A stretch of 64,000 nt of DNA from a bacterium. GTDB taxonomy: Bacteria > Patescibacteriota > Minisyncoccia > Phycocordibacterales > JAUSHB01. This document shows positions 3,033 to 37,740 of the stretch, one piece after another. The notes below the pieces were generated by a model that was given only the letters and a program-made list of their open reading frames with translations, did no database searches and had not been told where the DNA came from. Both the position numbers and the translations under genes were made by a program. Every line of letters begins with the position of its first letter. Within the stretch, counting starts at the first letter, position 1. The stretch lies in assembly GCA_030648955.1 (NCBI GenBank), contig JAUSHB010000010.1, positions 13,556 through 77,555 on the forward strand, given 5' to 3'.

Positions 3033-4238
3033 TTACGACAAAATTTTTAATTCCTTTCCAATTAATTCACAACACTTTATAAGATACGCGATTTGATCAT
3101 TTGAATGTGTTGACATAACTGTTAATCTAAGTCTTGCTCGATGTTTAGGAACCGCGGGCCATCTTACACAAGGAGCGTAGATACCTTTATCAAGCAACAT
3201 TCTCGAAAACTCAATTGCTTGTTCGTCTTCTCCTATTAACACAGGAACAATTTGAGTTTGACTCCCCAATGTATCAAAACCAAGTGTATTTAATTTTGCC
3301 CTTAAATCATCTGATTTTTTATTTAATAAAACCCTCAGATTAGGTTCTGATTCTATAACCTCTAGAGAAGTAATGAGTGAAGCTGACACAGCGGGCGGTA
3401 GAGCTGCTGAAAATATATATGGTCTGCTTGCTATTCTTAAATATTTGATTAAATTTTTACTTCCCACTACAAATCCGCCAACTGAAGATAGTGCCTTGCT
3501 ATGTGTTCCCATTACAATATCAACATCAGTAGTTGGTTTTAAGTTAAAGTGCTCAAGTGTGCCGTGGCCATTTTTTCCAATCACTCCGGTGGCATGCGCT
3601 TCATCTACCATCAATAAAGAATTATATTTTTTGCATAAAGTTACTATTTTATCTAAGGGTGCTATATCACCCTCCATACTAAATACACCGTCAGTTACAA
3701 CTAATTTTCTTCTGTGTTTAAATTTTTTGAGCTTCTTTTCTAAATCATTCATATCACAATGCTTATAGACGACGACTTTTTGTCCGCTCGCTTTTGCACC
3801 ATCAACGATACTTGCATGATTCAAATCATCGCTTAGTATGACGCTTCTTCTCCTAAAAAAATCATATGGTCCAACCTTGAAGGGATTCATGACGGCGGAA
3901 ATAACACCAAGATTCGTTTGATACCCCGTAGAAAAAACAATTGCGTCTTCTCCCCCTTTAAATTTAGCTATAGCTAGTTCATACTCTCTGTGTACCTGTA
4001 AATTTCCTGACAACATCCTAGAACCTCCTGACCCGACTCCGTATTTCTTTGTAGCTTCAATTGCGGCTGCAACAACTTTTGGGTGCGTAGCTAGTCCAAG
4101 ATAGTTATTTGAAGAAAACATCAGTACCTTTTTTCCATTTATGATAACTTCTGGTTCCGCAGCCCCATCAATTACATGCAAATCGGGATAGAGATGGTGC
4201 TCCTCCACATACTGCATAATATCTTCGATACGTTTCAT
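3033..4238 (-). CDS. PLP-dependent acyltransferase of the glycine C-acetyltransferase (KBL) / 8-amino-7-oxononanoate synthase family
   Basis: 401 aa with the class-II aminotransferase fold. The lysine motif GTHSKALSSVGG and the FSSNNYLGL region are typical of KBL/BioF/SPT enzymes. Confidence 0.85.
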   Translation of the reverse strand: MKRIEDIMQYVEEHHLYPDLHVIDGAAEPEVIINGKKVLMFSSNNYLGLATHPKVVAAAIEATKKYGVGSGGSRMLSGNLQVHREYELAIAKFKGGEDAIVFSTGYQTNLGVISAVMNPFKVGPYDFFRRRSVILSDDLNHASIVDGAKASGQKVVVYKHCDMNDLEKKLKKFKHRRKLVVTDGVFSMEGDIAPLDKIVTLCKKYNSLLMVDEAHATGVIGKNGHGTLEHFNLKPTTDVDIVMGTHSKALSSVGGFVVGSKNLIKYLRIASRPYIFSAALPPAVSASLITSLEVIESEPNLRVLLNKKSDDLRAKLNTLGFDTLGSQTQIVPVLIGEDEQAIEFSRMLLDKGIYAPCVRWPAVPKHRARLRLTVMSTHSNDQIAYLIKCCELIGKELKILS

Positions 4239-4283
4239 ATACTTTTTGGACTATATTAAAACAGTCAAAATGAGTCTACTACA

Positions 4284-4334
4284 CCCCCAGAATACCAAAA
4301 ATCCCCCGATTTTTCAATGGGTTTGTGGGGATAT
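4284..4334 (-). promoter_or_regulatory. R-repeat copy 1 (promoter/operator-like), 46 nt upstream of the kbl-like start
   Basis: The minus strand reads TTGAAA-17 nt-TATTCT, with the spacer palindrome AAAAATC-GGGG-GATTTTT. It is one of six copies. Confidence 0.5.
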
Positions 4335-4398
4335 TGAGTTTAAGCCCTTGCTTTTTATATTTCAGACCCCACATAATCAATATGTTATAATTAAACCT

Positions 4399-4830
4399 AT
4401 GAAATTAGAAAATATAAAATACTCGACGGATATCAAAGAACTCCAAGGATGTAAATTAGGAATTTTTTTTGAAGGATGGGAAATTAAACCTTCAGATCAA
4501 GTATTTCGGGATTCATTGAAAAATTCATATAAGGTTATTTGTGCCATCGACACAGAAAAAAATATGATCATTGGCTACATAACCGCTATTTCAGATGGCG
4601 TACTAAGTTCTTATATCCCCTTTCTTGAAGTTGATAAGCGCTACCAAAAACAAGGTATAGGTAGTGCTCTATTTAAAAAAATGCTCGAAGAATTAGGTGA
4701 ATTATACATGACCGACCTTGTTTGCGATGAAGAAAAAGCCGGCTTCTATGAGAAAGCCGGCATGATAAGATGGAACGCAATGATTATTCGTCGCTTTAAA
4801 CACCAAGGTGGTGTTCGGCGCAAGGATTAA
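4399..4830 (+). CDS. GNAT family N-acetyltransferase
   Basis: Acetyl-CoA binding motif QKQGIGSALFKKMLEEL. The ORF-track start at 4246 is an artefact of translating R-repeat copy 1; the first plausible ATG is at 4399 (MKLENIKY...). Confidence 0.7.
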   Translation: MKLENIKYSTDIKELQGCKLGIFFEGWEIKPSDQVFRDSLKNSYKVICAIDTEKNMIIGYITAISDGVLSSYIPFLEVDKRYQKQGIGSALFKKMLEELGELYMTDLVCDEEKAGFYEKAGMIRWNAMIIRRFKHQGGVRRKD

Positions 4831-4929
4831 GCAGCTACTTGGAGTGCCTTTTCAGCGTCCTTGAGGGTAATGTCCCCGTTGGCGAGTAGGCGTGCAAAAC
4901 TGAAGATGATGATTGATTCAAGCTGACTC

Positions 4930-5640
4930 TTGAACTCTTCTTCGTGGTTTTTGTGTTTTAGGCAACCTGAATTTGGAAGTCCTGCTTCCAAATTCACTCA
5001 AGTAGTTAAAAGCTTGAGGGACTTTTTTAAAAAATTATTAGTATATGATATGAATACATTTTTACATTCTCAAAATCCAAATATTAAACCGCTTGAATTT
5101 ATTGAGAAAGTTCTTAGTTTTTGTGATACAGGAAATGCTTTAGATCTAGGTGCTGGAACAGGGAGAAATGCAATATTCCTTGCGAAAAAAGGATTTAAGG
5201 TTGTTGCACTTGATTTATCTGGACAATCTGTGGATGAACTTACTCAATACTCTGCGCGTGAAGGTTTGTCATTGAAAACTTTCGTGTATAATCTTGCCAC
5301 AAATACACCTGATTTTTCAAATTACAACATAATTTTATTTACGTTTATACTCCATTATATTTCTAAGGAGAGAGGAGAAGAATTGATTGCTACTGCCCAA
5401 AAACAGGCTAACACGGGGACTATTCACGCGCTGGCTGTTATTACTACGGAAGGAGATTTTTTTGCTAAGGAAACCCAAAAGAAGAATTTTTATCTTGAAC
5501 CGGGGAATCTTGCAAAAAAATATGAGAAAGAGGGGTGGACAGTATTATCGTCGTTTGAAGAAAATCGGGCTATGGCAATAAAGAATGCGGATGGAACTCA
5601 GATGAAAAATTTGGTGTCATTTTTGATTGCAAGAAAATAA
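4930..5640 (+). CDS. SAM-dependent methyltransferase, TehB-like
   Basis: Motif LDLGAGTGRNAIFLAKKGFKVVALDLS. The start may be the internal ATG at 5050. Confidence 0.75.
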   Translation: MNSSSWFLCFRQPEFGSPASKFTQVVKSLRDFFKKLLVYDMNTFLHSQNPNIKPLEFIEKVLSFCDTGNALDLGAGTGRNAIFLAKKGFKVVALDLSGQSVDELTQYSAREGLSLKTFVYNLATNTPDFSNYNIILFTFILHYISKERGEELIATAQKQANTGTIHALAVITTEGDFFAKETQKKNFYLEPGNLAKKYEKEGWTVLSSFEENRAMAIKNADGTQMKNLVSFLIARK

Positions 5641-5649
5641 CAAAGGATA

Positions 5650-5690
5650 AGGAGGTCAGCAAGAGAGGTTTCACCTCCTTACAGCGTTTT
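5650..5690. terminator. hairpin GGAGGT...ACCTCC followed by a T-rich run
   Basis: AGGAGGTCAGCAAGAGAGGTTTCACCTCCTTACAGCGTTTT lies directly after the 4930..5640 stop. It is also the first structure downstream of R-repeat copy 2 on the minus strand. Confidence 0.5.
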
Positions 5691-5717
5691 ACATAAAAAT
5701 TTTAACAAAGAATCTTA

Positions 5718-5768
5718 CCCCCAGAATACCAAAAATCCCCCGATTTTTCAATGGGTTTGTGGGGATAT
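5718..5768 (-). promoter_or_regulatory. R-repeat copy 2, between two convergent genes with no obvious target gene
   Basis: Identical to copy 1 over about 50 nt. Confidence 0.45.
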
Positions 5769-5795
5769 GTTACTTATTTAGAGCTGTGTCTGAAT

Positions 5796-7829
5796 TTAAA
5801 TTTTTAGATCTAAATTTTGAGCAAAAAACGTAAGCAAAAGAGTCTGACTTTCAACAATTTTCTTTATTGGCTTACCTGGACCATGCCCGGTTTCCATTTC
5901 TGTAAAAATCAGCACTGTGTTCTTTTTATTAACGGATTGTAGCATGGCGGTCATTTTTCGTGCATGAAGTGGATCGACACGAGTATCCTTACTTGCTGTT
6001 GTAAAAAGGAAGGAAGGATATTCAACTCCCTCTTTCACGTTGTGGTATGGACTCCACTTTAAAATTCTTTGCAGATCTTCTTTTACTTCGGGGTTACCGT
6101 ATTCATGGACCCAACGAGATGCAATACCAAACAAGGGAAATCTAACCATATCAATTAATGGAACTCGAGAACAAACTGCTTTAAATAATTCTGGTCGCTG
6201 AACGGCAACCGCAGAAACCAATAAACCGCCGTTACTTCCTCCCAAAATACCAAGATGATCTCGGTCGGTATACTTTTCTTGAATAAGATATTCGGCGGCG
6301 GCAATAAAATCATCAAAAGAATTTTGTTTATTTTCTTTCATGCCATCTTTGTGCCATTTTTCACCAAATTCACCGCCACCTCGAATATTCGCAATAACAT
6401 AAATGCCTCCACGCTCCATCCATGACACGAAGCCTCTCATAAACCCTGGTGTGTTGAGGTCTGCAAAACCACCGTACCCATAGAGGATAGTAGGATTAAC
6501 TCCATCAACAGATATATTTTTCTTGTGAAAAATAAAAAGGGGTACTCTAGTTCCGTCTTTGGACTGATACCATTCCTGCTTGGTAACATAATCATTTGGG
6601 TTTATTGGGTTATCTGTTTTTCGGTATACCTCAAACTTATTTTCAATTGGAGAATATCGATATGTTATTTTAGGAAAAGTAAACGAATCAACGCCATAAA
6701 AAAACTCATCTTCTTCAATGTTCCTAGAAATTCCGGCGAGACTCGAATACGGAGGAAGTGGTATTTCGCCGATTTCTTTACCACTATGGTCAAACATTAC
6801 CACCTTTGAACAAGCATCAACAAGATAAGTTACGATTATTTTAGTTTTTGTAGTAGTTTCTGACTGCAAAAGATATTTCCGCTCTGGAATTAATTCTTCC
6901 CAGTCTTCAGTCGGAGTAAATAGATTTATGATAGGAACCGAAAGGATTCTAAAATTATTTGCATTATAATTAGTACCTACAATTACTTTATCTTCTAAAA
7001 ACTTGAGTGAAAATTTCGCAGGCATACCAACTACAAAAGGTTTTGTTTGCTTAGTATCCCTATCGTAAATATAAATATCGTTTTCAGTCCATGTTACCGC
7101 TGATGAAATTGCCAAATATCGTCCATCCATTGAAATAGTAATACCGAGCATATCATCTTTTGGACGATCTTTACCGAAAATAAGTTCATCGTTATTTGGA
7201 TTATCACCAATTTTATGAAAATAGATTTTTGTATGAAGATGTTCCTCGTTTTTAGGAACAGTACCAGGTTCGGGGTTCTTCGTATAGAAAAAACCGGAGT
7301 CATCAGGAAGCCAACTTATTTGGGAATGTCTGCACCGAGGAATTTGTTCTGATAGATTTATACCAGTATCCACTCCCTTTATGTACATTATTGCCATCTC
7401 ATCACCTCCCTGCGAAAGACCATATGCGAGATATTTACCAGTTCGAGATACCGACCAAAAAGCGATATTGATCGTATTGTCATCCCTCATCCCATTAGGA
7501 TCTACAAGTTTAACGGGGTTGCCATTTATTCCAGTTCTCACATAAAGTGCGGATTGGTCCTCGTCCGGTTGGCGCTCGCTATAAAAATACTTTCCCCTAA
7601 CAGGAATAGGATTTGAAAAATTAACAACCTTAAAATTCTTAACGAGTTCGTTAGAGAATATTTCAAAATTTTCATTTCGTAGGAAGGAATCAGTATAGGA
7701 ATTTTGAGATTCAACCCATTCCTTTGTTTCAGAACTTTTTGCATCTTCAAGCCAACGGTATGGATCAGATATTGAAATGCCATTAATAGAATCAATGATG
7801 TTATCTTTTTTAGTTTGTGGAATTTTCAT
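5796..7829 (-). CDS. prolyl oligopeptidase (S9A family serine peptidase)
   Basis: 677 aa with a beta-propeller N-terminal half and a C-terminal alpha/beta hydrolase. Catalytic serine motif GGSNGGLLV, plus YGYGGF. Confidence 0.85.
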   Translation of the reverse strand: MKIPQTKKDNIIDSINGISISDPYRWLEDAKSSETKEWVESQNSYTDSFLRNENFEIFSNELVKNFKVVNFSNPIPVRGKYFYSERQPDEDQSALYVRTGINGNPVKLVDPNGMRDDNTINIAFWSVSRTGKYLAYGLSQGGDEMAIMYIKGVDTGINLSEQIPRCRHSQISWLPDDSGFFYTKNPEPGTVPKNEEHLHTKIYFHKIGDNPNNDELIFGKDRPKDDMLGITISMDGRYLAISSAVTWTENDIYIYDRDTKQTKPFVVGMPAKFSLKFLEDKVIVGTNYNANNFRILSVPIINLFTPTEDWEELIPERKYLLQSETTTKTKIIVTYLVDACSKVVMFDHSGKEIGEIPLPPYSSLAGISRNIEEDEFFYGVDSFTFPKITYRYSPIENKFEVYRKTDNPINPNDYVTKQEWYQSKDGTRVPLFIFHKKNISVDGVNPTILYGYGGFADLNTPGFMRGFVSWMERGGIYVIANIRGGGEFGEKWHKDGMKENKQNSFDDFIAAAEYLIQEKYTDRDHLGILGGSNGGLLVSAVAVQRPELFKAVCSRVPLIDMVRFPLFGIASRWVHEYGNPEVKEDLQRILKWSPYHNVKEGVEYPSFLFTTASKDTRVDPLHARKMTAMLQSVNKKNTVLIFTEMETGHGPGKPIKKIVESQTLLLTFFAQNLDLKI

Positions 7830-7832
7830 TGT

Positions 7833-8048
7833 TTAGCGCAGGTCCTTAAGCGAAGAAAGCTTCTTCCCTTTTCCGTGTTCAAATTGCTCTCGGTCTCTTT
7901 TTAGAGACGCAGTAAAATTTCGTGCTTTTTGCTCACGCAAAAGATGGCGAAAAAATTCACTCGTGGAAGAAAACCCCCCTATCCTCACCTCTTTTCGGAT
8001 TTCTTTGGCGGTTATTTCGGGAACAGAAATATTAATGATGGTACGCAT
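7833..8048 (-). CDS. ribbon-helix-helix (CopG/ParD-like) DNA-binding protein
   Basis: 71 aa. ...TSEFFRHLLREQKA resembles RHH antitoxin/repressor sequences. Its stop lies 3 nt from the peptidase start. Confidence 0.5.
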   Translation of the reverse strand: MRTIINISVPEITAKEIRKEVRIGGFSSTSEFFRHLLREQKARNFTASLKRDREQFEHGKGKKLSSLKDLR

Positions 8049-8062
8049 GATTGTGTATTATT

Positions 8063-8083
8063 TTGTAATAATTTGTATTACAA
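8063..8083. promoter_or_regulatory. perfect 8-bp inverted repeat TTGTAATA-N5-TATTACAA overlapping the RHH gene start region
   Basis: It lies 15-35 nt upstream of the 8048 ATG and overlaps TATATT/TATTAT -10-like hexamers. This is a typical RHH autoregulation operator arrangement. Confidence 0.45.
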
Positions 8084-8147
8084 TATAATACTACCTTCGT
8101 AAGCAGATACTGTCAAGATGTATTATCTCTATACGTTCCAAATACCA

Positions 8148-8184
8148 AAAATTCCCCGGTTTTTCAATGACTTTGTGGGGATAT
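8148..8184 (-). promoter_or_regulatory. R-repeat copy 3 (variant), about 90 nt upstream of the RHH start
   Basis: ccaaataccaaaaattccccggtttttcaatgactttgtggggatat. Confidence 0.45.
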
Positions 8185-8288
8185 TGGAGTAGCTACATAT
8201 ACTGAAATTTTACTTGACAGTAATAGTCCGCATACTATATACTTAAAGCACTAAACGTGAACGGCATCCTATATGGGTGCCGTTCTTG

Positions 8289-8912
8289 TTATCTCCTTTT
8301 TAATCGTTCACGAAGATATTCAAAATCCCTAAAATTACTCCCGGCGAATTGACGAATTTCTTTTGCAGTTCTCGGCCCCCTCGCTAGAACAATAACCTCC
8401 TTTTTTATTTCTCTAAGATACTTAAGCACGGGCAAGAAATCACCATCACCAGAAAGTACGACGATGCGATCAAATTTATCTCGTTCCTTCATAAGATAAA
8501 ATGCCATATCTACATCACAGTTCGCTTTTCGTTTTGTTGTTCCATCTTCCTGGTCATACAACTTCACTGGCTTAAGGAATAATTGATACCCGAACTGTTC
8601 AAGTCTCAGGTAAAATCTTGTTCTTTGTAGGTGTCTACCGATCAAAAGAATGTCAGCCTCATTAAGTTCTTTTCCGCTGTTCTGCAATAATCCAAGAAGA
8701 TGTTTTTCGAGGGATTTTAGCGGAACGGTTTCATTTGTTTGATAATTATATTTAAAATTATGAACTTCAACACCTCCGAAGTAGAGTGTTTTCTTGACAT
8801 CATATTTTTCTTGTAGATACTCTAGTAGTTTTTCGTAATCTATCTTCCACCCTAAACTTTTTTCTCCACCATAAAAGAGATTTGACGCATCAATAAAAGC
8901 AAAAGTTTTCAT
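8289..8912 (-). CDS. NYN-domain (LabA-like, PIN-fold) protein
   Basis: FIDASNLFYGG ... VVLSGDGDFLPVLKYL matches the NYN / LabA family. Confidence 0.75.
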   Translation of the reverse strand: MKTFAFIDASNLFYGGEKSLGWKIDYEKLLEYLQEKYDVKKTLYFGGVEVHNFKYNYQTNETVPLKSLEKHLLGLLQNSGKELNEADILLIGRHLQRTRFYLRLEQFGYQLFLKPVKLYDQEDGTTKRKANCDVDMAFYLMKERDKFDRIVVLSGDGDFLPVLKYLREIKKEVIVLARGPRTAKEIRQFAGSNFRDFEYLRERLKRR

Positions 8913-8937
8913 AGCGAAAAATTATATACCCCCAAAA

Positions 8938-8987
8938 TACCAAAAATCCCCCGATTTTTCAATGCTTCCGTGGGGATAGGTAATTAA
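8938..8987 (-). promoter_or_regulatory. R-repeat copy 4, directly upstream of the NYN gene
   Basis: A TATATAAT element lies about 8 nt before the ATG, so the transcript is probably leaderless or has a very short leader. Confidence 0.5.
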
Positions 8988-9001
8988 GCACGTTAAATCG
9001 T

Positions 9002-9670
9002 CTAATCAATATCGAGTAGCGCTTGTTCGGTTTTTTGATATAGTGCAGTTAATTGTTTTTTGTTGTACATATGGGGGTATTTTGTATTAACGATTTTCAC
9101 GTTTTTTGCCAAAATATCATTTTTGAATAATTCCACCCATACTGCCTTATCATCACCTTTGGAAAAATAAATAAATAATTTATATCCTCGTATATTTTTT
9201 ACCATTTTTCTGATATCCAATTTAGCGAGGTCTCGCGCTAGGGTTTTACTGATATGAAATTTATTTAATTTATATAAATATTTTCCGGCGCTTTTGAGTG
9301 TCCTGTGCCCGTCTTTTGGTATCCATGGCGATGGCGACCAAAAGACAATTTTTTCGATACTTTTAGGGAGTCTTGATAGCATGAGAATGCTCGACCCAAA
9401 ACTATGGCCGATTATATACACGTGCTTATATTGTTTTCTGCGTGCATAATGCGCAAGAAAATGATTAACTCTTTCTATAATTCTCTTTATGTCTTGATGC
9501 AACTTCGTTTTGCCATCATAAAGCGTCAACGAAACAATGTCGCATTTATACTTAATTCTACTTAAGGGGGTAATAATTTCACTCAACGCATTCGTCATCA
9601 ACCCGGGCAAGATAATAATCAGTCGTTGATTATTGTTTGTAGTTTTCAAATAATATTCCTGATTTTTCAT
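9002..9670 (-). CDS. alpha/beta hydrolase
   Basis: Nucleophile elbow GHSFGS; 222 aa. Confidence 0.65.
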   Translation of the reverse strand: MKNQEYYLKTTNNNQRLIIILPGLMTNALSEIITPLSRIKYKCDIVSLTLYDGKTKLHQDIKRIIERVNHFLAHYARRKQYKHVYIIGHSFGSSILMLSRLPKSIEKIVFWSPSPWIPKDGHRTLKSAGKYLYKLNKFHISKTLARDLAKLDIRKMVKNIRGYKLFIYFSKGDDKAVWVELFKNDILAKNVKIVNTKYPHMYNKKQLTALYQKTEQALLDID

Positions 9671-9699
9671 TAATTCTATTTACTTAAAAATATCAAAAA

Positions 9700-9728
9700 T
9701 TAAGGGCTGTAATTATTACAGCCCTTAA
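9700..9728. terminator. perfect palindrome TTAAGGGCTGTAAT-T-ATTACAGCCCTTAA
   Basis: 14-bp stem located between the 9738 stop and the 9670 start. Confidence 0.6.
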
Positions 9729-9737
9729 TCAGAAGGT

Positions 9738-9992
9738 TCACTTTAGATTGAAATCGCCGTTTTTTACTCCCTTGATGAAAAGATCCCATTCCTTGGGAGA
9801 AAAAAGTGCTGTGATCTTTTGGGAATCGTTTGTATTACGCACCACGATAACATCATGCCGCTGTGCGACACCAACACAGGTTTTAATCCCCCAACAGATA
9901 ACGGTACCCTGGGGAGCAACGAAATCTGAATCCTTCAGGCCTTTTGCTGCACGCTGTAATTTGTCCATGAAACGATCACGAGTTTTCGCCAT
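9738..9992 (-). CDS. DUF397-like small protein
   Basis: KTCVGVAQRHDVIVVRNTNDSQKITALFSPKEWDLFIKGVKNGDF matches the DUF397 pattern C-V-x-V-A ... V-R-[DN]-[ST]-xD ... F-[ST]-x-x-EW-x-F-[IL]-x-G-[VA]-K-x-G-[ED]-F. Confidence 0.55.
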   Translation of the reverse strand: MAKTRDRFMDKLQRAAKGLKDSDFVAPQGTVICWGIKTCVGVAQRHDVIVVRNTNDSQKITALFSPKEWDLFIKGVKNGDFNLK

Positions 9993-10026
9993 AATGAATC
10001 TCCTTAAATTTTCAAGATCAAATGCT

Positions 10027-10066
10027 ACTAACGACCGTTAATAGCTCTGTTGTTAGAATACATCAC
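10027..10066 (-). promoter_or_regulatory. conserved 5' element M, copy 1 (shared with 13475..13515)
   Basis: ACTAACGAccGTTAATAGCTCTGT-N5-AGAATACAT lies 34 nt upstream of the 9992 ATG. The second copy has the same geometry upstream of 13445. Confidence 0.5.
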
Positions 10067-10190
10067 CGTTTTAATTCGGTCAAGCAAAATTGCAAATTAC
10101 GAAACTAGAGGGAGATTTTGATCTCCATGAACGATAGCGGATAAAAAGATCCGCAATACTAGAAACTGCAAGCAAAATATGTTGCATGTA

Positions 10191-10240
10191 CACCCTAAAA
10201 ATACCAAAAATCCACTCGTTTTTCAACCCCGTGGTAGTCC
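10191..10240 (-). promoter_or_regulatory. R-repeat copy 5 (degenerate)
   Basis: ataccaaaaatccactcgtttttcaaccccgtggtagtcc. Confidence 0.35.
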
Positions 10241-10259
10241 ACACTGGGCAGATTATTAC

Positions 10260-10514
10260 TTACGCATACAACGTATGAGAACCGACATCCATAAAATATA
10301 CTTTTTTCTTGTGTAGTTTTATAATAATTCGATAAGCAAAATTCACAGAAAAAGCATGGTATTTTTTTAATTTTCCGTGCAATTTATGGAGTTTTATTTC
10401 CCCCTCGTTCTTTTTATTTTTAAACAACGCAACAGTGCGATAACAATCATCTTGGACCGCGGGAGATAATTTTCGAAAGGAACGCAAGAATCTGGCGGTA
10501 TAAAGATATTCCAT
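10260..10514 (-). CDS. type II toxin, RelE/ParE superfamily (YafQ-like)
   Basis: LHKLHGKLKKYHAFSVNFAYRIIIKLHKKKVYFMDVGSHTLY fits the RelE/YafQ C-terminal signature. It overlaps the upstream antitoxin by its start and stop codons. Confidence 0.7.
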   Translation of the reverse strand: MEYLYTARFLRSFRKLSPAVQDDCYRTVALFKNKKNEGEIKLHKLHGKLKKYHAFSVNFAYRIIIKLHKKKVYFMDVGSHTLYA

Positions 10515-10516
10515 TA

Positions 10517-10738
10517 TTACTTACTTCGTCCCGCTAATTTTTTGAGATCGCCCTTATAGACACGTCCTGTTTTAATATCGTTTTCCGCCTCCTGTATCCG
10601 CAAAAGTATCCGTTCTTCGCGAAGACGCTCGAGAGCAAACCGCACGAGATGCGCCTTGCTCTCACTTGTTCCCTGTGCAAGCTCCTCCTCAATAAAATTC
10701 TCGAGGTCTTTATTGATGGGTATGGTAATGGTAGTCAT
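10517..10738 (-). CDS. type II antitoxin, RHH/ParD-like
   Basis: 73 aa, ...SKAHLVRFALERLREE..., sitting immediately upstream of the toxin. Confidence 0.65.
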   Translation of the reverse strand: MTTITIPINKDLENFIEEELAQGTSESKAHLVRFALERLREERILLRIQEAENDIKTGRVYKGDLKKLAGRSK

Positions 10739-10792
10739 ATACTATATCTTAGTACTATATTATAGTAATTGCAAGTCAATAAAAGTGGTTCT

Positions 10793-10849
10793 CTGGAGAT
10801 ACCAAAAATCCCCAGATTTTTCAATGCTTCCGCGGGATACCGCCTATCA
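10793..10849 (-). promoter_or_regulatory. R-repeat copy 6, about 55 nt upstream of the antitoxin start
   Basis: ctggagataccaaaaatccccagatttttcaatgcttccgcgggatacc. Confidence 0.45.
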
Positions 10850-10863
10850 AGTTTCCCACAGGT

Positions 10864-12492
10864 GTGGTATTTTACTCTGTAATGGCCAAAGTAATACTCT
10901 CGGCAAAAGATACATCGTTTGAGCTCCAACATAAAACTCTTTTTAAAGAGCTTAATCTGACGATAAAAGAGGGCGATCGGATCGGATTGGTTGGGAAAAA
11001 CGGCAGTGGAAAAAGCACGCTTTTAAAATTGCTTGCGGGACAAATCGAAACAACAAGAGGCGTGATAGAAAACAAGGGTTCCTCGTACTATCTCCCCCAG
11101 TTAGACTTCTCGCTTTTTGGAAGCACCGACAAAATAGAAGAATATGTTTTTCGCCAAGGAGTAAATTGGTCCGCCCTTAATGCAAAGCTTCGCAAATGGT
11201 TTAAAGAAAACGAAATCAAGCCTGACCAAAAACTTCAAACACTCAGCGGAGGTGAGTTGATGAAACTCAATCTCGCGATCGCCGAAGCACACAATCCCAA
11301 TCTCTTGCTCCTTGATGAGCCAACAAACCACCTCGATGCAGAAGGTATTGATATTTTAAAGAAATTTCTCACAACATTCCCGGGGGCATTCATTATTGTT
11401 TCTCACGATCCATTCTTTCTTAATCTTGTGGTAAATCATATTTGGGAACTTGAGGAAGGAGCTGTCGCCGAGTATGGAGGGAATTATACACATTATGCCG
11501 ACCAGAAGCAGTTTAAGAAAGATGCGCGAGAACGGGATTATACGGCAACCAAGAAAAAATTAAAGAAGGTCAAAAAATCCATTGAAGCAGAACAAAAACG
11601 CGCAGACCGCTCAAAGCGCGTGGGAAGAAAAGAAGTGTTCGCAAACAACATGCCGCCGGTACTGAAAGGATTTTACGCAAACCAAGCATCCGGTACCGCG
11701 GGCAAGCAGGGAAAAAAACTAAGAAAAATCATGGCGCAACGAGATGAGAAAGCCAGTACATTAAAAAAGGAGAAACAACGTCCGCTGCGGTTTGTGATCG
11801 ACCACGACACTTCCGGCGCGCGAAAAACGTTAATTGCCATTAATGACGGAGTGCTTGGGGTTGCAGAAAAAACTCTTATCGAAAATATCGACCTTCGCAT
11901 TGTTTATGGCGACCGCCTTGTGTTAGTCGGCAAAAATGGCAGTGGAAAAAGTACGCTTGCAAAATCTATTGCAGGAGAAGATGCTGTGGTGGAACTCGGA
12001 GGGTACGTCAAACGCTCCCCCGACGCAGGTGTGGTGTATGTGGACCAGAAATACCAAATCATCGCCCCCAACCTTACGCTTATCGAGAATGTGGAAAAAT
12101 ATAATCCGAAACTTACTCATGAAGAAGTGCGGAGACAACTTGGTCGTTTTCTTTTCTATAAAGAAGAAGACGCGCGCAAGAAGGCGGGAGTCTTGAGTGG
12201 AGGCGAGGCGGCACGTCTTGTGTTTGCGATGGTCACGGCGGGATCAGTCGATCTTCTGGTGCTTGATGAACCAACCAACAACCTTGATATTGAAACACTT
12301 GATATTATCGCGGATGCTTTGAAAGATTTCGCGGGCGCATTGGTGATAATCTCTCACAACATACATTTTCTTAAACGTATCGGTATAGACACCGCGCTTA
12401 TCATCGACAAAAAGAAACTCAAAACCATGCGCTCGTCCCCCGCCGAACCAGAAGCGTTTTATAACGAGATGGTTAGTAGCATGAGTTCGTAA
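10864..12492 (+). CDS. ABC-F family ATPase (two tandem ABC domains, no TMD)
   Basis: Two Walker A motifs (GKNGSGKST twice), two LSGGE signature motifs, and an inter-domain linker rich in K/R/E. Confidence 0.85.
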   Translation: MVFYSVMAKVILSAKDTSFELQHKTLFKELNLTIKEGDRIGLVGKNGSGKSTLLKLLAGQIETTRGVIENKGSSYYLPQLDFSLFGSTDKIEEYVFRQGVNWSALNAKLRKWFKENEIKPDQKLQTLSGGELMKLNLAIAEAHNPNLLLLDEPTNHLDAEGIDILKKFLTTFPGAFIIVSHDPFFLNLVVNHIWELEEGAVAEYGGNYTHYADQKQFKKDARERDYTATKKKLKKVKKSIEAEQKRADRSKRVGRKEVFANNMPPVLKGFYANQASGTAGKQGKKLRKIMAQRDEKASTLKKEKQRPLRFVIDHDTSGARKTLIAINDGVLGVAEKTLIENIDLRIVYGDRLVLVGKNGSGKSTLAKSIAGEDAVVELGGYVKRSPDAGVVYVDQKYQIIAPNLTLIENVEKYNPKLTHEEVRRQLGRFLFYKEEDARKKAGVLSGGEAARLVFAMVTAGSVDLLVLDEPTNNLDIETLDIIADALKDFAGALVIISHNIHFLKRIGIDTALIIDKKKLKTMRSSPAEPEAFYNEMVSSMSS

Positions 12493-13515: not shown

Positions 13516-13593
13516 AGATAAAATATGTCAATAGTGGCAAGTGGTAATAAATTCTTAGTATTTTGAAGGCTTTGTGGAAATAGAAAAAATAAT

Positions 13594-21047: not shown

Positions 21048-24000
21048 CTAATACCCGACCAGTAACTGTCCTTTGTCTGTCATCACCGTAACCACCGCAA
21101 TTCCCGGCTTTGATATTTTTATTTTTTTACTTTTTCCCTCTTCAACCTCATCCACAATCTTGGTTTCGTTGATTGCTTGTTTATATTTCGTTTCAATTTT
21201 GCGCATATCCTTAAGATGAATTTCTTGAGAGAGTGACTTTAGTATATCATTTTTGAATTTCCATTCATATTCGAGTGTTGTTTTTGGTGTTGCTGTGGCA
21301 ATGCCATTGTAGATGATCGTATTAAAAACAACCTTAATTTCCGTGGGTTCTTCTTCGTACTCAAGGAAAGGGATGTTGGTTGTGTTGCCTGCTTCGTCGG
21401 TAATCGTGGTGCTGGTTGCGGTGGTGTTTACCGTAGTGGATGAGAGATTATCGATGCCCGTGATAAAAAATTTGTTGGCAGCGGGGTCAAAAGTAAAACG
21501 TGCTTCTGGTGGGGTTGCATCATAGATAGTGGTACCGCCAAGAGTTGGTTTAAGTGTGGAATCGATTGTGTTATCGTTGTTGAAATCAATCGCGAGTGTA
21601 GTCGTAGTTGAAAGTACTCCTGTCCATGTAAGAGTCACTTGTGTGGTTGTAGCAGTGGGAATAGCTTCGTAGGTGGTGGAAGCCATGACAATGTCGCCAC
21701 GAAGCTCTTCAAGGTCAAGAGTGAACGAACCTGAAGCGTAGGCATCAAGTTTTACGGTATGCAAAGTATCGGCAGAAACAATGATAATTTTGGTATCACC
21801 AAGAGTGTAGTAAGTACTACCCTTGATGCCTTCTTCAATCAATCCCGTGGTCGTCGAGATACCAGTATGGTTGCCTGCTTGGTCATAGATGTTGAGGTTG
21901 AGGGGTGAATGAAGTTGATACTTGATATATGGTTTTGTGGAGACAAGTAATGAAGAATCATTGGTAATATATTGTTCAGGGGTCGAACTGCTTATGACAA
22001 TCGAATGGATGAAGGAGCGAAGGGGATCAACTTCAAGAATATTTTTGTGCTCACGGTCAATTGTTGATGTTAAATTGTTATACTTTCCCAAATCCACCCA
22101 CCACTTTTGCGTCATTGAAGAAGTCGGCATGAGATGCGCGCTTTCTTCCACCACTGTTTTGTCGCCGTTTAACGTTACCTTATCTTGAATTTTAATGACA
22201 TCAACATATCTCTCACAAATAATTGGTTGTGGTGCGCCGATTGTTTGCGGTGTCGATGGGGGATCTCTGGGGATACATACTTTATTCTTTTCGTAACGAA
22301 TCACCGCGGGAGTATATATCCCCCACCCTGCGATTTCATAAACCATAGTCGATGTGGCAGGAGTCCATTGGTCGAGCGTCGCGTGGATTGTTTCGGCGTT
22401 TGAAAGCAGGGTTGAATTTCCAATCGCAGGAGAAGAAAGATCGTCATAGGCAGGTACAGCCCGTCCGTCACCGCCCGTGAGATAATCTGCAAGCTCATCA
22501 TAGGTGTCGATGGTATCGCCATAACGTGCTGAGATTACGGGACTCACTGCGTTTCCTCCAAACTCAATGAGCGGCGTTGAGGAGCCGATGTATGCACGCG
22601 ATGGAAGGAGATTGTATCCCGTTGGCATATTGTGCAAAAGGTCACGAACGCGCTCCGCATCCATGAGAAAACCTAATGGACCAAGACTTCCGCCATGAAG
22701 AAGCTGGCCGACAGTGTCAGGCGTTCCTGCTTGGGGAACGGCGACAAAAATAACATTGTCGATTCTGTCGTAGAGGGGGTCGTTGGCCTCCTTCAGTTTT
22801 TGAATGAGCGCCTTGGTGACGAGTCCACCGTTTGAATGCGCAACGATGGTGACCTTTTGGGTCTTCGACGAATCCGCGAGTATTTTCAACTGCTTGTATA
22901 GGTAACTATTTGTGAACCCTTGCGGGGTACTGTATGAAATCCCGTCAGTTGATGTTGCGCCATTCTGAAGAATATCCTCGAGTGAGAGCCGCCAATCGTA
23001 TGCGATCATAGAGTAATCGTTGATGATGTGATCGGCTTCTTTCCACTTCTTGAGGTCGTTTATAAACGATTGGTAAATATTGGAAGCATATACTTCATCA
23101 ATAACACCAGCGGTGCCTTCTTTTGTGTATAACGAGTTAATGCTCTTCCCTGCTCCATTGAGTACGAGGCGTTGGTGATTGCAGTCCAGTATTGAAACCC
23201 AGCGTTCTTTTTCATTGTTAAATACTCCACAATCGCTGCTTTTTTCAAACAGTCTTGATCCCATCATCCCCGGCAAAAACAGAACGTTGGAATAACAGTC
23301 GGCGGTGCAGGGAGGGGGTATATTGTTCCACCCATCTTGTGTTGTCCACGGAAGATTATCCTGCCCGCCATAAAAAATATATGGCGAATCGCAGAAGTTG
23401 TCGTTATTTGAATCACTACAACCCTCTGCTGTCGTATCAAAGTTACTCCAGTAGTTGCCACCGATTGATGGGGTGAGATTAAAAACATTACCGTTGCCAC
23501 CATTGACACGAGCCTGCGTAAAGTTGCCGATAAGATTGTTGTTGTAAACTTGGTTGTTGTTGGAAGAGAATAGATAGATTCCGTAAACGTTATTGTTTGA
23601 TGCAGTGTTGTTTGTCAGAATGTTGTTACTGGATAAGGAAAATAAGATTCCATAAAAGTTGTTCCCTAACACAGTGTTGTTTGTCAGTGTGTTATTGTTT
23701 GAGGAACCATAGAGGAGAATTCCGGAGTTGTTGTTTGATGCGATATTGTTTGTCAGAACGTTATTGCTACTGGAAGAGTCGAGATAGATTCCAGAGTTAT
23801 TGTTTGAGGAATTTACGTTCGCAATTGTGGATGAGCTTGTTTGTATGAGAAATAAGCCGTTGTTTTTCTTCGTTATCGAACCGTCAATTGTGATATTGTT
23901 TATATTTGAACCGCCGGCGTTGCACAGTATCAATTCAGAAAAAGTTTCATTACTTAAGGTAACCGCGCTGTTGAAGTATCTGATTGGTCTCCCGCCGGAA

Positions 24001-24977
24001 CCAATAGTGTTGGTAATACTGTTGTCACAATGGCTATCTGACGATACTTGAACATGAAGGTCGTCGGAAGAGTTTTCCTGCGCAACATTGTTCATCAGAA
24101 TATTATTACTGGAAAAGTAGAGGTAGATTCCAAAACCATTTGAACTCGCGGTATTGTTGGTTAAAGTGTTGTTGTTACTAAGATATCCAAGAAAGATTCC
24201 GTAACTATTTGAGGTCGTAGTGTTGTTGGTTAAAGTGTTGTTGGATCCACGGAGTAAGATTCCATTCAAAAATTTCTTAACATTTAAATTCTTGATAGTA
24301 ACGCCAGTCCTTCCAGAAAATCCGGAAAGATAGACACCGTTTCCCGTATTGCTCCCGGTTAACATGTGGCTGTTGCCGTCAAGCGTTATGCCATTGCTGT
24401 CGATCTGAATGGTCTCGGTTAAATCCACATTCAGTGTGCAGGTTTTAATAGCGGAATCCCAGTTGCCAATCAAAGTGCAATCGCCGCCAGTGGCATCATC
24501 ACGAATGAACTTGGTGCTTTTGTGGGTTTGGATAAAGACAATGTGGGGAGTTGAAATGTCTTGCGTGTATGAATATGCGCCGTTTTCGTCAGTGGTAAAT
24601 TGAGTCAGGTTGTGATAATTGTCTTCATATTTATAGTAAGTGGTTGAGGTAGTAAAACCATAAAGGGTGATCTGGGTTGAGGTTGCAATTAAAAGAGCGG
24701 GCGACTCAATCGTCATTGTTACCATGTTGGGAACCGACTCCATTCTAAGTTTGATTACTTCTGTGCTGTCTAAACTGATATTTAAATATGCGCTGTCGGT
24801 GATAGAAAAGTTTGCGCTCGTACCTTCTACGACGCCTGATCGTGTCGATGGTTCAAACGATGGCAACTCTTGAGCTCTTGCGCGATCAGCGAATAAGAAT
24901 ACCCCTGCGACAAAAACCGCCGCAAGTACAAGATGGGGCGCAAAGAAAAACTGTGATTTTAGGTTCGATATATTCAT
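21048..24977 (-). CDS. giant secreted multi-domain protein: signal peptide, parallel beta-helix repeats, lipase-like alpha/beta hydrolase, C-terminal beta-rich domains
   Basis: Signal peptide MNISNLKSQFFFAPHLVLAAVFVAGVFLFADRARA. Repeated N-N-x-[TL]-x-N-N-T-A-S-N-N / GIYL units indicate a right-handed beta-helix. The motif VLFLPGMMGSRL ... VTIVAHSNGGLV is a G-H-S-x-G nucleophile elbow of the PGAP1/LCAT-like lipase type. The C-terminal 400 aa are Thr-rich and Ig-like. Confidence 0.8.
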   Translation of the reverse strand: MNISNLKSQFFFAPHLVLAAVFVAGVFLFADRARAQELPSFEPSTRSGVVEGTSANFSITDSAYLNISLDSTEVIKLRMESVPNMVTMTIESPALLIATSTQITLYGFTTSTTYYKYEDNYHNLTQFTTDENGAYSYTQDISTPHIVFIQTHKSTKFIRDDATGGDCTLIGNWDSAIKTCTLNVDLTETIQIDSNGITLDGNSHMLTGSNTGNGVYLSGFSGRTGVTIKNLNVKKFLNGILLRGSNNTLTNNTTTSNSYGIFLGYLSNNNTLTNNTASSNGFGIYLYFSSNNILMNNVAQENSSDDLHVQVSSDSHCDNSITNTIGSGGRPIRYFNSAVTLSNETFSELILCNAGGSNINNITIDGSITKKNNGLFLIQTSSSTIANVNSSNNNSGIYLDSSSSNNVLTNNIASNNNSGILLYGSSNNNTLTNNTVLGNNFYGILFSLSSNNILTNNTASNNNVYGIYLFSSNNNQVYNNNLIGNFTQARVNGGNGNVFNLTPSIGGNYWSNFDTTAEGCSDSNNDNFCDSPYIFYGGQDNLPWTTQDGWNNIPPPCTADCYSNVLFLPGMMGSRLFEKSSDCGVFNNEKERWVSILDCNHQRLVLNGAGKSINSLYTKEGTAGVIDEVYASNIYQSFINDLKKWKEADHIINDYSMIAYDWRLSLEDILQNGATSTDGISYSTPQGFTNSYLYKQLKILADSSKTQKVTIVAHSNGGLVTKALIQKLKEANDPLYDRIDNVIFVAVPQAGTPDTVGQLLHGGSLGPLGFLMDAERVRDLLHNMPTGYNLLPSRAYIGSSTPLIEFGGNAVSPVISARYGDTIDTYDELADYLTGGDGRAVPAYDDLSSPAIGNSTLLSNAETIHATLDQWTPATSTMVYEIAGWGIYTPAVIRYEKNKVCIPRDPPSTPQTIGAPQPIICERYVDVIKIQDKVTLNGDKTVVEESAHLMPTSSMTQKWWVDLGKYNNLTSTIDREHKNILEVDPLRSFIHSIVISSSTPEQYITNDSSLLVSTKPYIKYQLHSPLNLNIYDQAGNHTGISTTTGLIEEGIKGSTYYTLGDTKIIIVSADTLHTVKLDAYASGSFTLDLEELRGDIVMASTTYEAIPTATTTQVTLTWTGVLSTTTTLAIDFNNDNTIDSTLKPTLGGTTIYDATPPEARFTFDPAANKFFITGIDNLSSTTVNTTATSTTITDEAGNTTNIPFLEYEEEPTEIKVVFNTIIYNGIATATPKTTLEYEWKFKNDILKSLSQEIHLKDMRKIETKYKQAINETKIVDEVEEGKSKKIKISKPGIAVVTVMTDKGQLLVGY

Positions 24978-26428: not shown

Positions 26429-26450
26429 GGTTAAACCAATATTAAAGTTA

Positions 26451-26469
26451 AAAAATCAAAGTTTAAAAT
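26451..26469. repeat. AT-rich element core AAAAATCAAAGTTTAAAAT (family copy i)
   Basis: The same 19-mer, or its reverse complement, recurs at 37703-37721, 57190-57208 and, as a variant, at 60924-60956. Confidence 0.6.
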
Positions 26470-26550
26470 TTTTGTATTCGCCTGTCTGCGTGCATCGCAC
26501 AGGCAGGCCAGCGACGAATACCATGATTTTTCATTTTGATATTTGCATTT

Positions 26551-27513
26551 TTATTTTTCCCTAAGAACTAGGCCAAGATTCCCAAGCGCCCGCCTGATTT
26601 CCTGAATTCCCTTTTCGCCAAGTCCCTCGAGCTCAAGAAGATCTTCTTCACTTTTCTTGGAAAGTCCCCCTACGGTTCTGATGTTTGCGCTTGCAAGAGC
26701 ATTCGCAGTACGCGTCGAGAGATCGAGACTTTCGACTTTCATTTTTGAAACTTCTTCTTCGTCGGTGGTTTTGATTGCGTTTCCTTCGCTAATATCAACT
26801 CCACTTGAAACAAACTCTTCTTCCTTAAATCCAACAATCGACTTAAGTTGATTGATCATTATCTCGATTGATTTCTCGAGTGCTTCACGTGGAGTAAGTG
26901 TTCCATCTGTCTCAATGGAAATTTTGAGCCTGTTGTGGTCTGTCCTATCACCTACGCGCATGTTTTCTACTTCGTAATTCACGCGACGAATTGGAGTAAA
27001 TATAGCATCTACCGCAATAGTTCCAATGTCCACTTTTTCTTTTTGATGTACATCTTTTGCAATATACCCGAGACCTTTCTCGACTCTCAATTCTATATCA
27101 AGCGTTGTTCCCTTGTCAGTAATAGTAGCGATCGGAGCATCTTTTGATAATACTTCAACTTGACCGGGAACTTTGATGTCTGCCGCCGAAACATTTTTTA
27201 CACCCTTCACCGTCAATGTTACGGTTTGCGGTTCATCAGTCAACATCTTGAACCGTACTTTTTTTAAATTAAGCAATATGGTGATAACATCTTCTTTCAC
27301 GCCTTGAATGGTTGAAAACTCATGTGACACGCCACTGATCTTTACAGACGTAATCGCCGCTCCCGGAAGAGACGAGAGAATGATCCTTCGTAATGAATTA
27401 CCAAGTGTGTGACCATATCCCGGGTACAAACCGTCAATCTCGTAAACACCGGAGATTGCATCTTCGGAGATTACACGAGGTTTTGAGGGAAGAATGACAT
27501 TGTATTCAGGCAT
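26551..27513 (-). CDS. rpoA: DNA-directed RNA polymerase alpha subunit
   Basis: N-terminal dimerisation domain and a C-terminal domain (...EDLLELEGLGEKGIQEIRRAL). Confidence 0.9.
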   Translation of the reverse strand: MPEYNVILPSKPRVISEDAISGVYEIDGLYPGYGHTLGNSLRRIILSSLPGAAITSVKISGVSHEFSTIQGVKEDVITILLNLKKVRFKMLTDEPQTVTLTVKGVKNVSAADIKVPGQVEVLSKDAPIATITDKGTTLDIELRVEKGLGYIAKDVHQKEKVDIGTIAVDAIFTPIRRVNYEVENMRVGDRTDHNRLKISIETDGTLTPREALEKSIEIMINQLKSIVGFKEEEFVSSGVDISEGNAIKTTDEEEVSKMKVESLDLSTRTANALASANIRTVGGLSKKSEEDLLELEGLGEKGIQEIRRALGNLGLVLREK

Positions 27514-37097: not shown

Positions 37098-37601
37098 TTA
37101 TTCGTTGTGGTGTTTGTTTTCCTGATTCGATCCACTATACAGCCCCTTAAACGTTCCCTGTTCAATATACCGCTCTTCAACAAACCACATTACCGTAAAA
37201 ATAAAGAGAGTGATGAGGGTCGCGATAAGCGCAAGAAGAAAAAGACCGAAACCAGACGCCATGCCGATTCCCGCAGCAACCCACAACCCCGCGGCAGTAG
37301 TAAGACCACTTAGGTGAGATTCTTTGAAGACAATGAGTCCTGCACCAAGAAAACCTATCCCTACAACGATTTGTGATGCCATACGAAGTGGATCAAATGA
37401 CACTTGCCCAAGATACCAACCGGAAACGATCAAAGAAATAATTACAAATAATGCCGCACCGATGGAAACGAGTGCATACGTTCGCACGCCGGCGGTCTTT
37501 CCCGCAACAGCGCGCTCAATACCAAGCAAAACCCCAAGAACCATCGCAATAAGAAGACGCGCAATGAGATCTATGTTTGAAATGAGAATGTGTTGATCCA
37601 T
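37098..37601 (-). CDS. MgtC/SapB family membrane protein
   Basis: LIAMVLGVLLGIERAVAGKTAGVRTYALVSIGAALFVI. Confidence 0.75.
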   Translation of the reverse strand: MDQHILISNIDLIARLLIAMVLGVLLGIERAVAGKTAGVRTYALVSIGAALFVIISLIVSGWYLGQVSFDPLRMASQIVVGIGFLGAGLIVFKESHLSGLTTAAGLWVAAGIGMASGFGLFLLALIATLITLFIFTVMWFVEERYIEQGTFKGLYSGSNQENKHHNE

Positions 37602-37604
37602 GAT

Positions 37605-37740
37605 GATAATTCAAAATGTAAATATCAAAATGTAAAATTACAGTTTAAAATTTAAAGACAAGGAAGGATTGTGCTGTTTTTCTTTTTGAATTTTCATTTG
37701 TGATTTTAAACTTTGATTTTTTAATTTGTTGTAACAGAAT
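37605..37740. repeat. AT-rich palindromic element (family copy ii) upstream of the MgtC gene
   Basis: CAAAATGTAAAT direct repeats on one arm, and the reverse complement of AAAAAATCAAAGTTTAAAATC at 37703-37721 on the other arm. Confidence 0.5.

Follow-up and report, generated by a model that had tools for sequence, protein, structure and literature searches.

A repeated promoter-like element at the seams of a variable gene block in a patescibacterial genome

Results

We analysed 64,000 nucleotides of a patescibacterial genome (Patescibacteriota; Minisyncoccia; Phycocordibacterales; JAUSHB01), positions 13,556 to 77,555 of contig JAUSHB010000010.1 in assembly GCA_030648955.1; this whole stretch is called the window below and is numbered from its first letter. 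Between a minus-strand gene for a class I/II aminotransferase (kbl/BioF-like, 3033-4238) and a plus-strand gene for an ABC-F ATPase (10864-12492), the repeat search of the window found one direct-repeat family, six copies of 52 nt that lie between small accessory genes: P1 (4283-4334), P2 (5717-5768), P3 (8133-8184), P4 (8928-8979), P5 (10192-10243) and P6 (10790-10841), all of which look like a promoter when read on the minus strand. With moderate confidence we regard the repeat as a lineage-specific promoter family that has been propagated and whose copies are the insertion and deletion seams of a variable gene block.

The core of the repeat, TACCAAAAAT-N7-TTTTTCAA, was sought in the window with up to 2 mismatches tolerated. 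It has six matches, all on the plus strand, against 0.04 expected from shuffled sequence, and no further match beyond the 4283-10841 block. P1 to P6 are 100, 100, 83, 88, 62 and 65% identical to the first copy over 52 nt. On the minus strand TTGAAA is followed after 17 nt by TAT in six of six copies, and the -10 box is TATTCT in P1 and P2, TATTTG in P3, TATTTT in P4 and P5 and TATCTC in P6; the full sigma70-type pattern, with hexamers 16-18 nt apart and both A2 and T6 in the -10, is found in P1, P2, P4 and P5. The same four copies are the sole sites with TG before the -10 among the 34 listed by a consensus-promoter scan between 3000 and 12000. The TGG of an extended -10 is present in 27 of the 28 distinct copies that we collected from the window and from sister metagenome contigs (the loci of relatives carry L numbers below), and the canonical copies have GGGGGT after the -10. 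G-rich discriminators are known to stabilise open complexes.

The initial annotation of this DNA had described six copies confined to the block and a sigma70-type layout reused before unrelated genes; both statements agree with the core scan and with the complete minus-strand anatomy, and its coordinates for the third and fourth copies were 10-15 nt off. Its formula of TTGAAA-17-TATTyT for every copy stands for the -35 and the spacing in all six copies and breaks down at the -10 of P3 and P6. The spacer palindrome AAAAATC-GGGG-GATTTTT that it pointed out is real, with 98.5% of the cells paired across the 28 copies; the second pair of arms, ATCCCC/GGGGAT, exists in copies 1-4, partially in copy 6 and not in copy 5. 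Five copies do lie upstream of minus-strand starts as proposed, at 45 nt (the kbl-like gene, start 4238), 85 nt (RHH protein), 16 nt (NYN-domain protein), 200 nt (DUF397-like protein) and 52 nt (antitoxin), and the N-terminal extension of the open reading frame (ORF) 4246..4830 is indeed translated repeat, the GNAT domain beginning after the ATG at 4399. An accessory island is likewise supported: the GC content of the block is 0.368 compared to 0.418 +/- 0.010 for the rest of the window (6.5-kb windows, minimum 0.397), and gene content varies between close relatives. The extended -10, the GGGGGT after it, the recombination breakpoints at copies and the probable leaderless origin go beyond that annotation.

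Aligned on the minus strand, the 28 copies read [ATATCCCCAC-N6/7]-TTGAAA-AATCGGGGGATTTTTGG-TATTCT-GGGGGT. No variation is seen in TTGAAA, in the T-tract, at one C of TGG or in the TAT of the -10; copies differ in the spacer centre, in the last part of the -10 and in the two flanks, spacer changes being limited to the central TCGGGGG. Where the flanks of two copies are unrelated, their similarity is bounded exactly by the two hexamers. In the window, five copies out of six have a co-oriented gene downstream; across all loci this is so in about 19 of 22 distinct contexts. In relatives the element also precedes a methionyl-tRNA synthetase (MetRS) gene, named by eye from its sequence, a class II aminoacyl-tRNA synthetase (aaRS)-like gene and a conserved core gene of 547 codons.

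The last of these genes points to the origin of the repeat. In L018 and L045 the element stands directly before it, as TATTCT-GGGGGT-ATG ATC AGC. The protein deposited at NCBI has 567 amino acids (aa), its ORF extending back through the repeat, and the 466 homologs from Patescibacteria are about 545-550 aa long, start with M[LI]SQEAIQ.ILGI and extend over 99-100% of the protein when it is read from this ATG. The true start codon of the family is therefore the ATG located 7 nt after the -10, which is the predicted +1. The ortholog in L056 has TGGTATAAT-TTGGGGT-ATG, that is, the layout TGGTATAAT-7 nt-ATG, and the one in L058 has TGATATAAT-TTTATTAA-ATG; these are orthologs at 54-58% identity, and L057 is too AT-rich for a call. 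Since the start codon lies at the predicted +1 and the layout is kept in distant orthologs, the repeat is most likely the native leaderless promoter of this conserved gene of about 547 aa in Patescibacteria. Leaderless genes whose -10 box lies some 7 nt ahead of the start codon have been described in Actinobacteria, Deinococcus and others. The parent gene is absent from the window and from the 1.5 kb recovered upstream of it. We also considered the array to be an insertion hotspot directly upstream of the parent gene and rejected this, as in Ga0209518_1001923 (L018 and L043) the gene is about 10 kb off, across the ABC-F gene.

Copies of the repeat carry pieces of the gene that once followed them. 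The 547-aa gene has left its first 27 codons (MISQEAIQAILGIQEKVNITPEEMADK) behind the copy ahead of the class II aaRS-like gene in L023, L043 and L047, and also behind the copies at L035:1921 and L037:105. About eight copies are followed by a decayed remnant of this 5' end, 20 nt long (ATAGTTAGGCAAGAAATAAT), to which are fused the leader and the first ~30 codons of a second gene, encoding 389 aa with a shikimate-dehydrogenase-type NAD-binding domain (Pfam). This gene, presumably acyl-ACP-reductase-like, is intact in L020 only (L020:4367-5536). Its fragment ends at nearly one nucleotide (TTTGCGTTTTT|), and a gene-specific TTGACx-17-TAxxxT promoter follows each time. Such layered relics fit repeated deletion and recombination in which the promoter is retained, and not transposition of a defined 52-nt unit.

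The start of the 389-aa gene, with the consensus METISLAISSVADLMVRYKPWPTNPAGFAF, stands before at least four different genes (L023, L041, L046, L018, L044, L037). A diverged 5' fragment of it is found in the window just downstream of P5, as a minus-strand ORF of 35 codons at 10080-10187 (MQHILLAVSSIADLFIRYRSW...); its amino-acid changes are conservative, and it may be either a remnant or a short functional ORF. Different genes have a 5' region in common in another instance as well, window 10006-10226 and L037 (original coordinates 191-431), 70% identical upstream of unrelated genes: the shared stretch contains a promoter, a hairpin and the ribosome-binding region and reaches as far as the start codon, which belongs to the DUF397-like gene in the window and to a 164-aa gene in L037.

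The copies coincide with the ends of missing segments in close relatives. L023, L041 and L043 resemble the window at 83% DNA identity in the ABC-F gene and at 87% in both the toxin-antitoxin unit, which adjoins ABC-F in them as well, and the RHH gene, and they are without 8185-10266, about 2.1 kb with the NYN and the hydrolase/DUF397 units; P3 is the left and P5 the right breakpoint of this segment. The single copy that these relatives have is a hybrid: its left flank is P3-like (59-61 of 80 positions identical, versus 17 of 80 for the left flank of P5) and its right flank is P5-like (61-64 of 80, versus 6-20 of 80 for the right flank of P3). As the relatives lack exactly the interval from P3 to P5, the copies also serve as recombination breakpoints. 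The NYN unit with its two flanking copies occurs again in L025, beside a different left neighbour. In L037 and L044 the methyltransferase homologs are on the minus strand and adjoin the repeat, thus the GNAT-methyltransferase unit of the window is inverted compared to the usual arrangement. Furthermore, the right-arm subtypes TGCTTCCGTGGGGATA, CGCCTTTGTGGGGATAT and TGGGTTTGTGGGGATA are shuffled relative to the left leaders, which argues for exchange within the core. Some synteny breaks lie outside copies: the homology of L023 stops 13 nt past the RHH stop, and no repeat is found there. On the 3' side of the RHH gene (window 7820-7833; L023:4348; L047:3421-3894) there are three different neighbours: the S9 peptidase gene in the window, a toxin-like gene of 84 aa in L047, and in L023 an HD-domain gene that lies on the opposite strand.

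Outside the window the family has a narrow distribution. The 185,579 species-representative genomes hold no family member, the 15 matches obtained from them being none of them true; several of these, read on the opposite strand, show TTGAAA-17-TAxxAT-like hexamers (e.g. Ruminococcus, Lachnospiraceae). Viral contigs contain no copy, and neither do the relatives at 56-59% ABC-F identity (L052-L054), where the gene context differs. The metagenome scan yielded about 18 contigs with true copies, several of them holding 2-3, from Ga0209541/2, Ga0209518 and Ga0209210 samples and from Hainich H51 groundwater. With the genome, viral and distant-relative scans empty and copies only in these contigs, the family is limited to a narrow lineage. 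Short-read contigs of the same genome (L050 and L051, Logan assemblies, SRR13727527) stop at or inside repeat copies; therefore the repeats fragment assemblies of the lineage.

The state of the individual copies in the window differs. The box of P1 is intact (-35 TTGAAA at 4317-4312, TGG and -10 TATTCT at 4294-4289, then GGGGGT; predicted start ~4282), and before the kbl-like gene at the left flank is reached there is a weaker match, TAGACT-17-TATAGT. P2 (hexamers 5751-5723), identical to P1, lies 28 nt past the stop of the S9 peptidase gene; its intact box is aimed into a terminator hairpin and the 3' end of the plus-strand methyltransferase gene, so it would be an orphan or antisense promoter. 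Between these two copies is unit 1, made of a GNAT acetyltransferase gene (4399-4830), which has a TATAAT of its own, and a TehB-like methyltransferase gene (5050-5640), on the plus strand and thus opposite to every other unit. P3 has a degenerate left part, the spacer AACCGGGGAATTTTTGG and a damaged -10. It precedes the minus-strand unit 2 of an RHH gene (7833-8048) and an S9 prolyl oligopeptidase gene (5796-7829), and the RHH gene has its own promoter, TTGACA-17-TAGTAT at 8116-8088, followed by the perfect palindrome TTGTAATA-N5-TATTACAA. P4 is intact (hexamers 8962-8934), lies 23 nt past the hydrolase stop and faces unit 3, the NYN-domain gene (8289-8912, minus strand); an overlapping TATAAT stands 8 nt before the NYN ATG.

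P5 (hexamers 10226-10198) is intact as well and precedes unit 4 on the minus strand, a DUF397-like gene (9738-9992) and an alpha/beta hydrolase gene (9002-9670), with the relic ORF in between and with a promoter of the unit's own, TTGACC-17-TATTCT, at 10083-10055. P6 has a degenerate left part and a damaged -10; it precedes unit 5 (minus strand), an RHH-like antitoxin gene (10517-10738) with its own ATATAGTA direct repeats and a ParE/RelE-like toxin gene (10260-10514), and is divergent from the ABC-F gene that anchors the block on the right. The ABC-F protein, which shares 46% identity with 'Patescibacteria group' proteins, probably has its real start at 10885. The best consensus promoter of the region, TTGACA-18-TATACT (11/12) with an 11-bp hairpin 16 nt further on, lies on the plus strand at 8214-8285, between P3 and the NYN stop, and is kept in L025; it could belong to a tiny antisense or small RNA unit, or the hairpin could be the NYN terminator. 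Rfam at the gathering threshold gave no family for the whole window, which also has no tRNA or tmRNA genes.

Several repeat copies of relatives contain a further element of 64-80 nt (L041:8540-8610, L041:9200-9270, L023:5284-5350, L039/L031), which has a GC-rich hairpin in its centre and whose ends, CCCCGTAGTAGAATTTAACAA...TTGTTAAATTTCACTACCGGGT, are inverted. Its insertion point is constant, TTTTTCAA|C just upstream of the -35, with the normal right arm after it, and in the loci examined it is confined to copies of the repeat. This mini-element is possibly target-specific and similar to REPINs or miniature inverted-repeat transposable elements (MITEs). The window has no full copy of it; the right arm of P5 is replaced by a remnant of about 22 nt (10227-10248), and this is why P5 looks degenerate.

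The window holds other repeats too. A 156-nt repeat of 99% identity (1396-1551 and 2580-2735) forms the common 3' ends of a 63-aa and an 88-aa gene that flank a gene for an S-adenosylmethionine-dependent methyltransferase (1641-2585), and a 50-nt relic of the kbl 3' end is present at 1269-1318 (it matches 3033-3082); on account of both, the low-GC region left of the array appears to bear more rearrangement scars. Another intergenic family (26438-26563, 37597-37733, 57176-57319, 60915-61106) has AT-rich inverted arms AAAATCAAAGTTTAAAA...TTTTGATATTTACATTTT, which at 26438-26563 enclose a GC-rich hairpin; its members are possibly bidirectional terminators. The 1309-aa ORF at 21048-24977 (minus strand) has 69-nt tandem repeats (families D3, D6, D14, D17), which suggests a repetitive surface-type protein. 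Two genes similar to those of insertion sequences (IS), with rve integrase-core domains (45377-46698 and 48014-49192) and related terminal repeats GAATGGCCTCACCAAAAAT...GTGACCTCACGAAAAA, are unrelated to the array and about 35 kb away from it. The IS ends at 46.7 and 47.9 kb were considered as the source of the element and rejected, the common ACCAAAAAT being too short.

Discussion

Our explanation starts from what was observed, namely the anatomy of the copies, their conservation pattern, the start codon of the parent gene at the predicted +1, the breakpoints at copies and the hybrid copies. A minus-strand promoter module of about 52 nt, originally the leaderless promoter of the 547-aa gene, would have been copied to many intergenic sites in a narrow lineage, and some copies would have brought along up to ~30 codons of the gene that lay downstream. 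Direct repeats of 50-190 nt would then allow general homologous or unequal recombination to delete, insert and swap the units between them. The movement of units would thus depend on RecA-type recombination and not on a dedicated enzyme, and its outcome would be the cassette-like, strain-variable and low-GC block beside the ABC-F gene. Transcription would probably initiate at P1, P4 and P2 in the window, and initiation at P3 and P6 is predicted to be weak or vestigial.

Several points weigh against this explanation. Initiation by RNA polymerase at the copies is predicted from sequence. P3 (TATTTG) and P6 (TATCTC) do not have the conserved final T of the -10, and consensus promoter matches are not enriched overall in this AT-rich region (34 compared to 27.3 +/- 5.4 in shuffles). 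The RHH gene, the DUF397-like gene, the toxin-antitoxin pair and a 75-aa gene of the relatives have promoters of their own downstream of the copy, and because the served genes do, many copies may be redundant or mere scars. P2, L040:803 and L041:6096 have no ORF to serve, each facing the 3' end of a gene on the other strand, and the co-orientation of copies and genes is confounded by regional strand bias and by the copies being direct repeats. The element also has two features that a promoter does not require, the near-invariant 18-nt palindrome and a terminal inverted repeat matching at 8 of 10 positions (ATATCCCCAC...CTGGGGGTAT). Finally, the window covers 64 kb of the genome and the other loci are short sister contigs.

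In a regulon, the spacer palindrome would be an operator and a common repressor, possibly an RHH protein of the block, would switch the accessory genes together. The palindrome lies between the -35 and the -10, a common place of repressor action, 98.5% of its cells are paired in 28 copies, the few changes preserve G-T pairing, and variation in the spacer occurs only in the central TCGGGGG. However, the A5/T5 arms share positions with the -35 and with the T-tract that precedes TGG, so promoter constraint alone could conserve them, and as the arms are nearly invariant the covariation of the palindrome is uninformative; moreover, the promoter of the L056 ortholog has no such palindrome. The initial annotation had proposed the two RHH proteins as repressors acting on a built-in operator of an accessory-gene regulon. 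Neither part of the proposal is supported by our data: both RHH genes have in their own control regions repeats that are unlike the spacer palindrome, the element of the relatives precedes MetRS, the aaRS-like gene and the 547-aa core gene, three of the five served genes in the window have separate gene-specific promoters or repeats, and one copy faces no gene. We consider a regulon unlikely, although an operator might be present in addition to the promoter.

One could argue that the repeat is a selfish element of 52 nt, of the MITE type or of the repetitive extragenic palindromic (REP) type, moved by a transposase in trans, and that its resemblance to a promoter is accidental or secondary, as in Correia elements of Neisseria. 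These elements, like REP/REPIN sequences, are short intergenic repeats, and the promoter-bearing kind can supply hexamers. In favour of such an element are the terminal inverted repeat ATACCCCCAG / ATATCCCCAC with its 8 of 10 matching positions, the weak folding of canonical copies (z -2.0 as DNA), the mini-element with terminal inverted repeats that was repeatedly inserted at one point inside, and the two rve transposase genes in the window. On the other hand, the IS ends (46707-46769 and 47943-48005) have only ACCAAAAAT in common with the element, the pairing of the outer stem is just 65%, and we saw no target-site duplication. Every contig with at least two copies has them in one orientation and clustered rather than dispersed, the variable lengths of carried downstream gene would be unexpected for a defined element, and the searched species-representative genomes and viral contigs are devoid of it. 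On the 64 kb and the short sister contigs analysed, a selfish element is unlikely.

A bolder idea keeps the promoter and adds a cassette system: the portable leaderless promoter would be the homology or attachment site of a Patescibacteria cassette system that works without a recombinase or with an unknown one. If so, units would leave by excision, be acquired through transformation and insert again at the promoter, arriving already transcribed, and the system would be a functional analogue of the integron built from a promoter. We regard this as a long shot.

An integron-like cassette system with the repeat as an attC-like site of site-specific recombination is, in our opinion, very unlikely, even if the array looks like one. 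The repeats are homogeneous and separate small accessory genes, most of them in one orientation and a toxin-antitoxin pair among them; relatives differ in which units they have, with breakpoints at copies, the NYN unit has another context in L025, most copies begin 0-30 nt past the preceding stop codon, and identical P1 and P2 surround one unit. Nevertheless, the 40 proteins scanned from the window and the sister arrays include no recombinase of the tyrosine or serine type, the sole matches being the two distant rve IS genes, and none of the 28 aligned copies has both core sites RYYYAAC/GTTRRRY. The length of 52 nt is below that of attC (~57-141 nt). Stem covariation is missing, as the outer stem is paired at 65% and ATCCCC/GGGGAT at 69.6%, no better than shuffles, and the fold z-scores are modest and inconsistent (-0.06 to -2.6). 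Units have promoters of their own and some hold 2-5 genes, including MetRS; fragments of downstream genes travel with the copies, and other synteny breaks, such as the one past the RHH stop, are away from them. The literature on attC or intergenic repeats in Patescibacteria, also known as the candidate phyla radiation (CPR), gave nothing relevant, a paper on Gracilibacteria hypervariation being concerned with a coding tandem repeat.

It is hardly credible that the repeat is a terminator, or terminator-promoter punctuation, for the minus-strand genes ending just right of the copies. Many copies do lie 0-30 nt past stop codons, and on the minus strand TTTTT comes after ATCCCC...GGGGAT. However, none of the six window copies is recognised by a terminator scan, the loop of the stem measures 19-20 nt and many copies no longer have this stem; roughly one in four of the distinct copies stands in a divergent region, where no gene would need a terminator, and the true terminators of L039 and L046, canonical hairpins with T7, are separate and lie between the upstream gene and the element. 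A dif-type site has two 11-nt recombinase-binding arms around a 6-nt centre; a Xer/dif (pdif-like) boundary was rejected, the palindrome being 7-4-7 (AAAAATC CCCC GATTTTT) and not 11-6-11, and no Xer gene was seen.

The reading of the repeat as a propagated leaderless promoter has consequences beyond this locus. CPR promoters are essentially unmapped, and the element offers a concrete and testable model of one, with its -35, extended -10, G-rich discriminator and leaderless start in a gene family conserved throughout Patescibacteria. It would also be a case of a tiny, recombination-prone genome that reuses one promoter, the copies of which become seams for the gain and loss of accessory genes. 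For annotation, the repeat accounts for false N-terminal extensions, as in ORF 4246..4830 and in the 567-aa form of the 547-aa protein, and for the breaks of short-read assemblies at copies.

Comparison with Known Systems

The phenomenon is of a known kind, promoter reuse, and not a new kind of system. Putative mobile promoters were described as sequences of 50-100 nt with at least 80% identity that stand before non-homologous genes, in families of 2-93 members (Matus-Garcia, Nijveen and van Passel, 2012; PMC3488235). The repeat has 52 nt, four of its window copies are 83-100% and two are 62-65% identical to the first, and the downstream genes are unrelated; as with mobile promoters, similar upstream sequences precede non-homologous genes both in the genome and in close relatives, and the six copies of the window and at least 28 distinct ones in the lineage are inside the reported range. 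What distinguishes our case from these promoters and makes it noteworthy is that a probable parent gene can be named, that the promoter is leaderless in it, that decaying 5' fragments are carried along, and that the copies are clustered in one variable block at insertion and deletion breakpoints.

Sedentary chromosomal integrons and clusters of attC sites lacking integrases (CALIN) share with the block the homogeneous short repeats, the mostly co-oriented small accessory genes including toxin-antitoxin pairs and acetyltransferases, and a unit content that varies between close relatives. They differ from it in that we found neither attC core sites nor an integrase among the proteins scanned, and in that the repeat is a promoter aimed into the next unit and not a 3' recombination site. 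Additionally, the units of the block have their own promoters and can include housekeeping genes, and their exchange is best explained by ordinary homologous recombination.

Correia, REP and REPIN sequences are similar in being short intergenic repeats with inverted ends, possible promoter hexamers and, here, a nested small palindromic element. In contrast to them, our repeat has a single orientation per contig, no target duplication and no dispersal in the 64 kb, and no cognate transposase was found in the window. In anatomy the repeat resembles leaderless promoters: the parent gene has TGG-TATTCT-6 nt-ATG, and this arrangement is kept in the orthologs L056 and L058. Unlike them, the promoter studied here has been copied before genes that come with their own leaders and Shine-Dalgarno sites.

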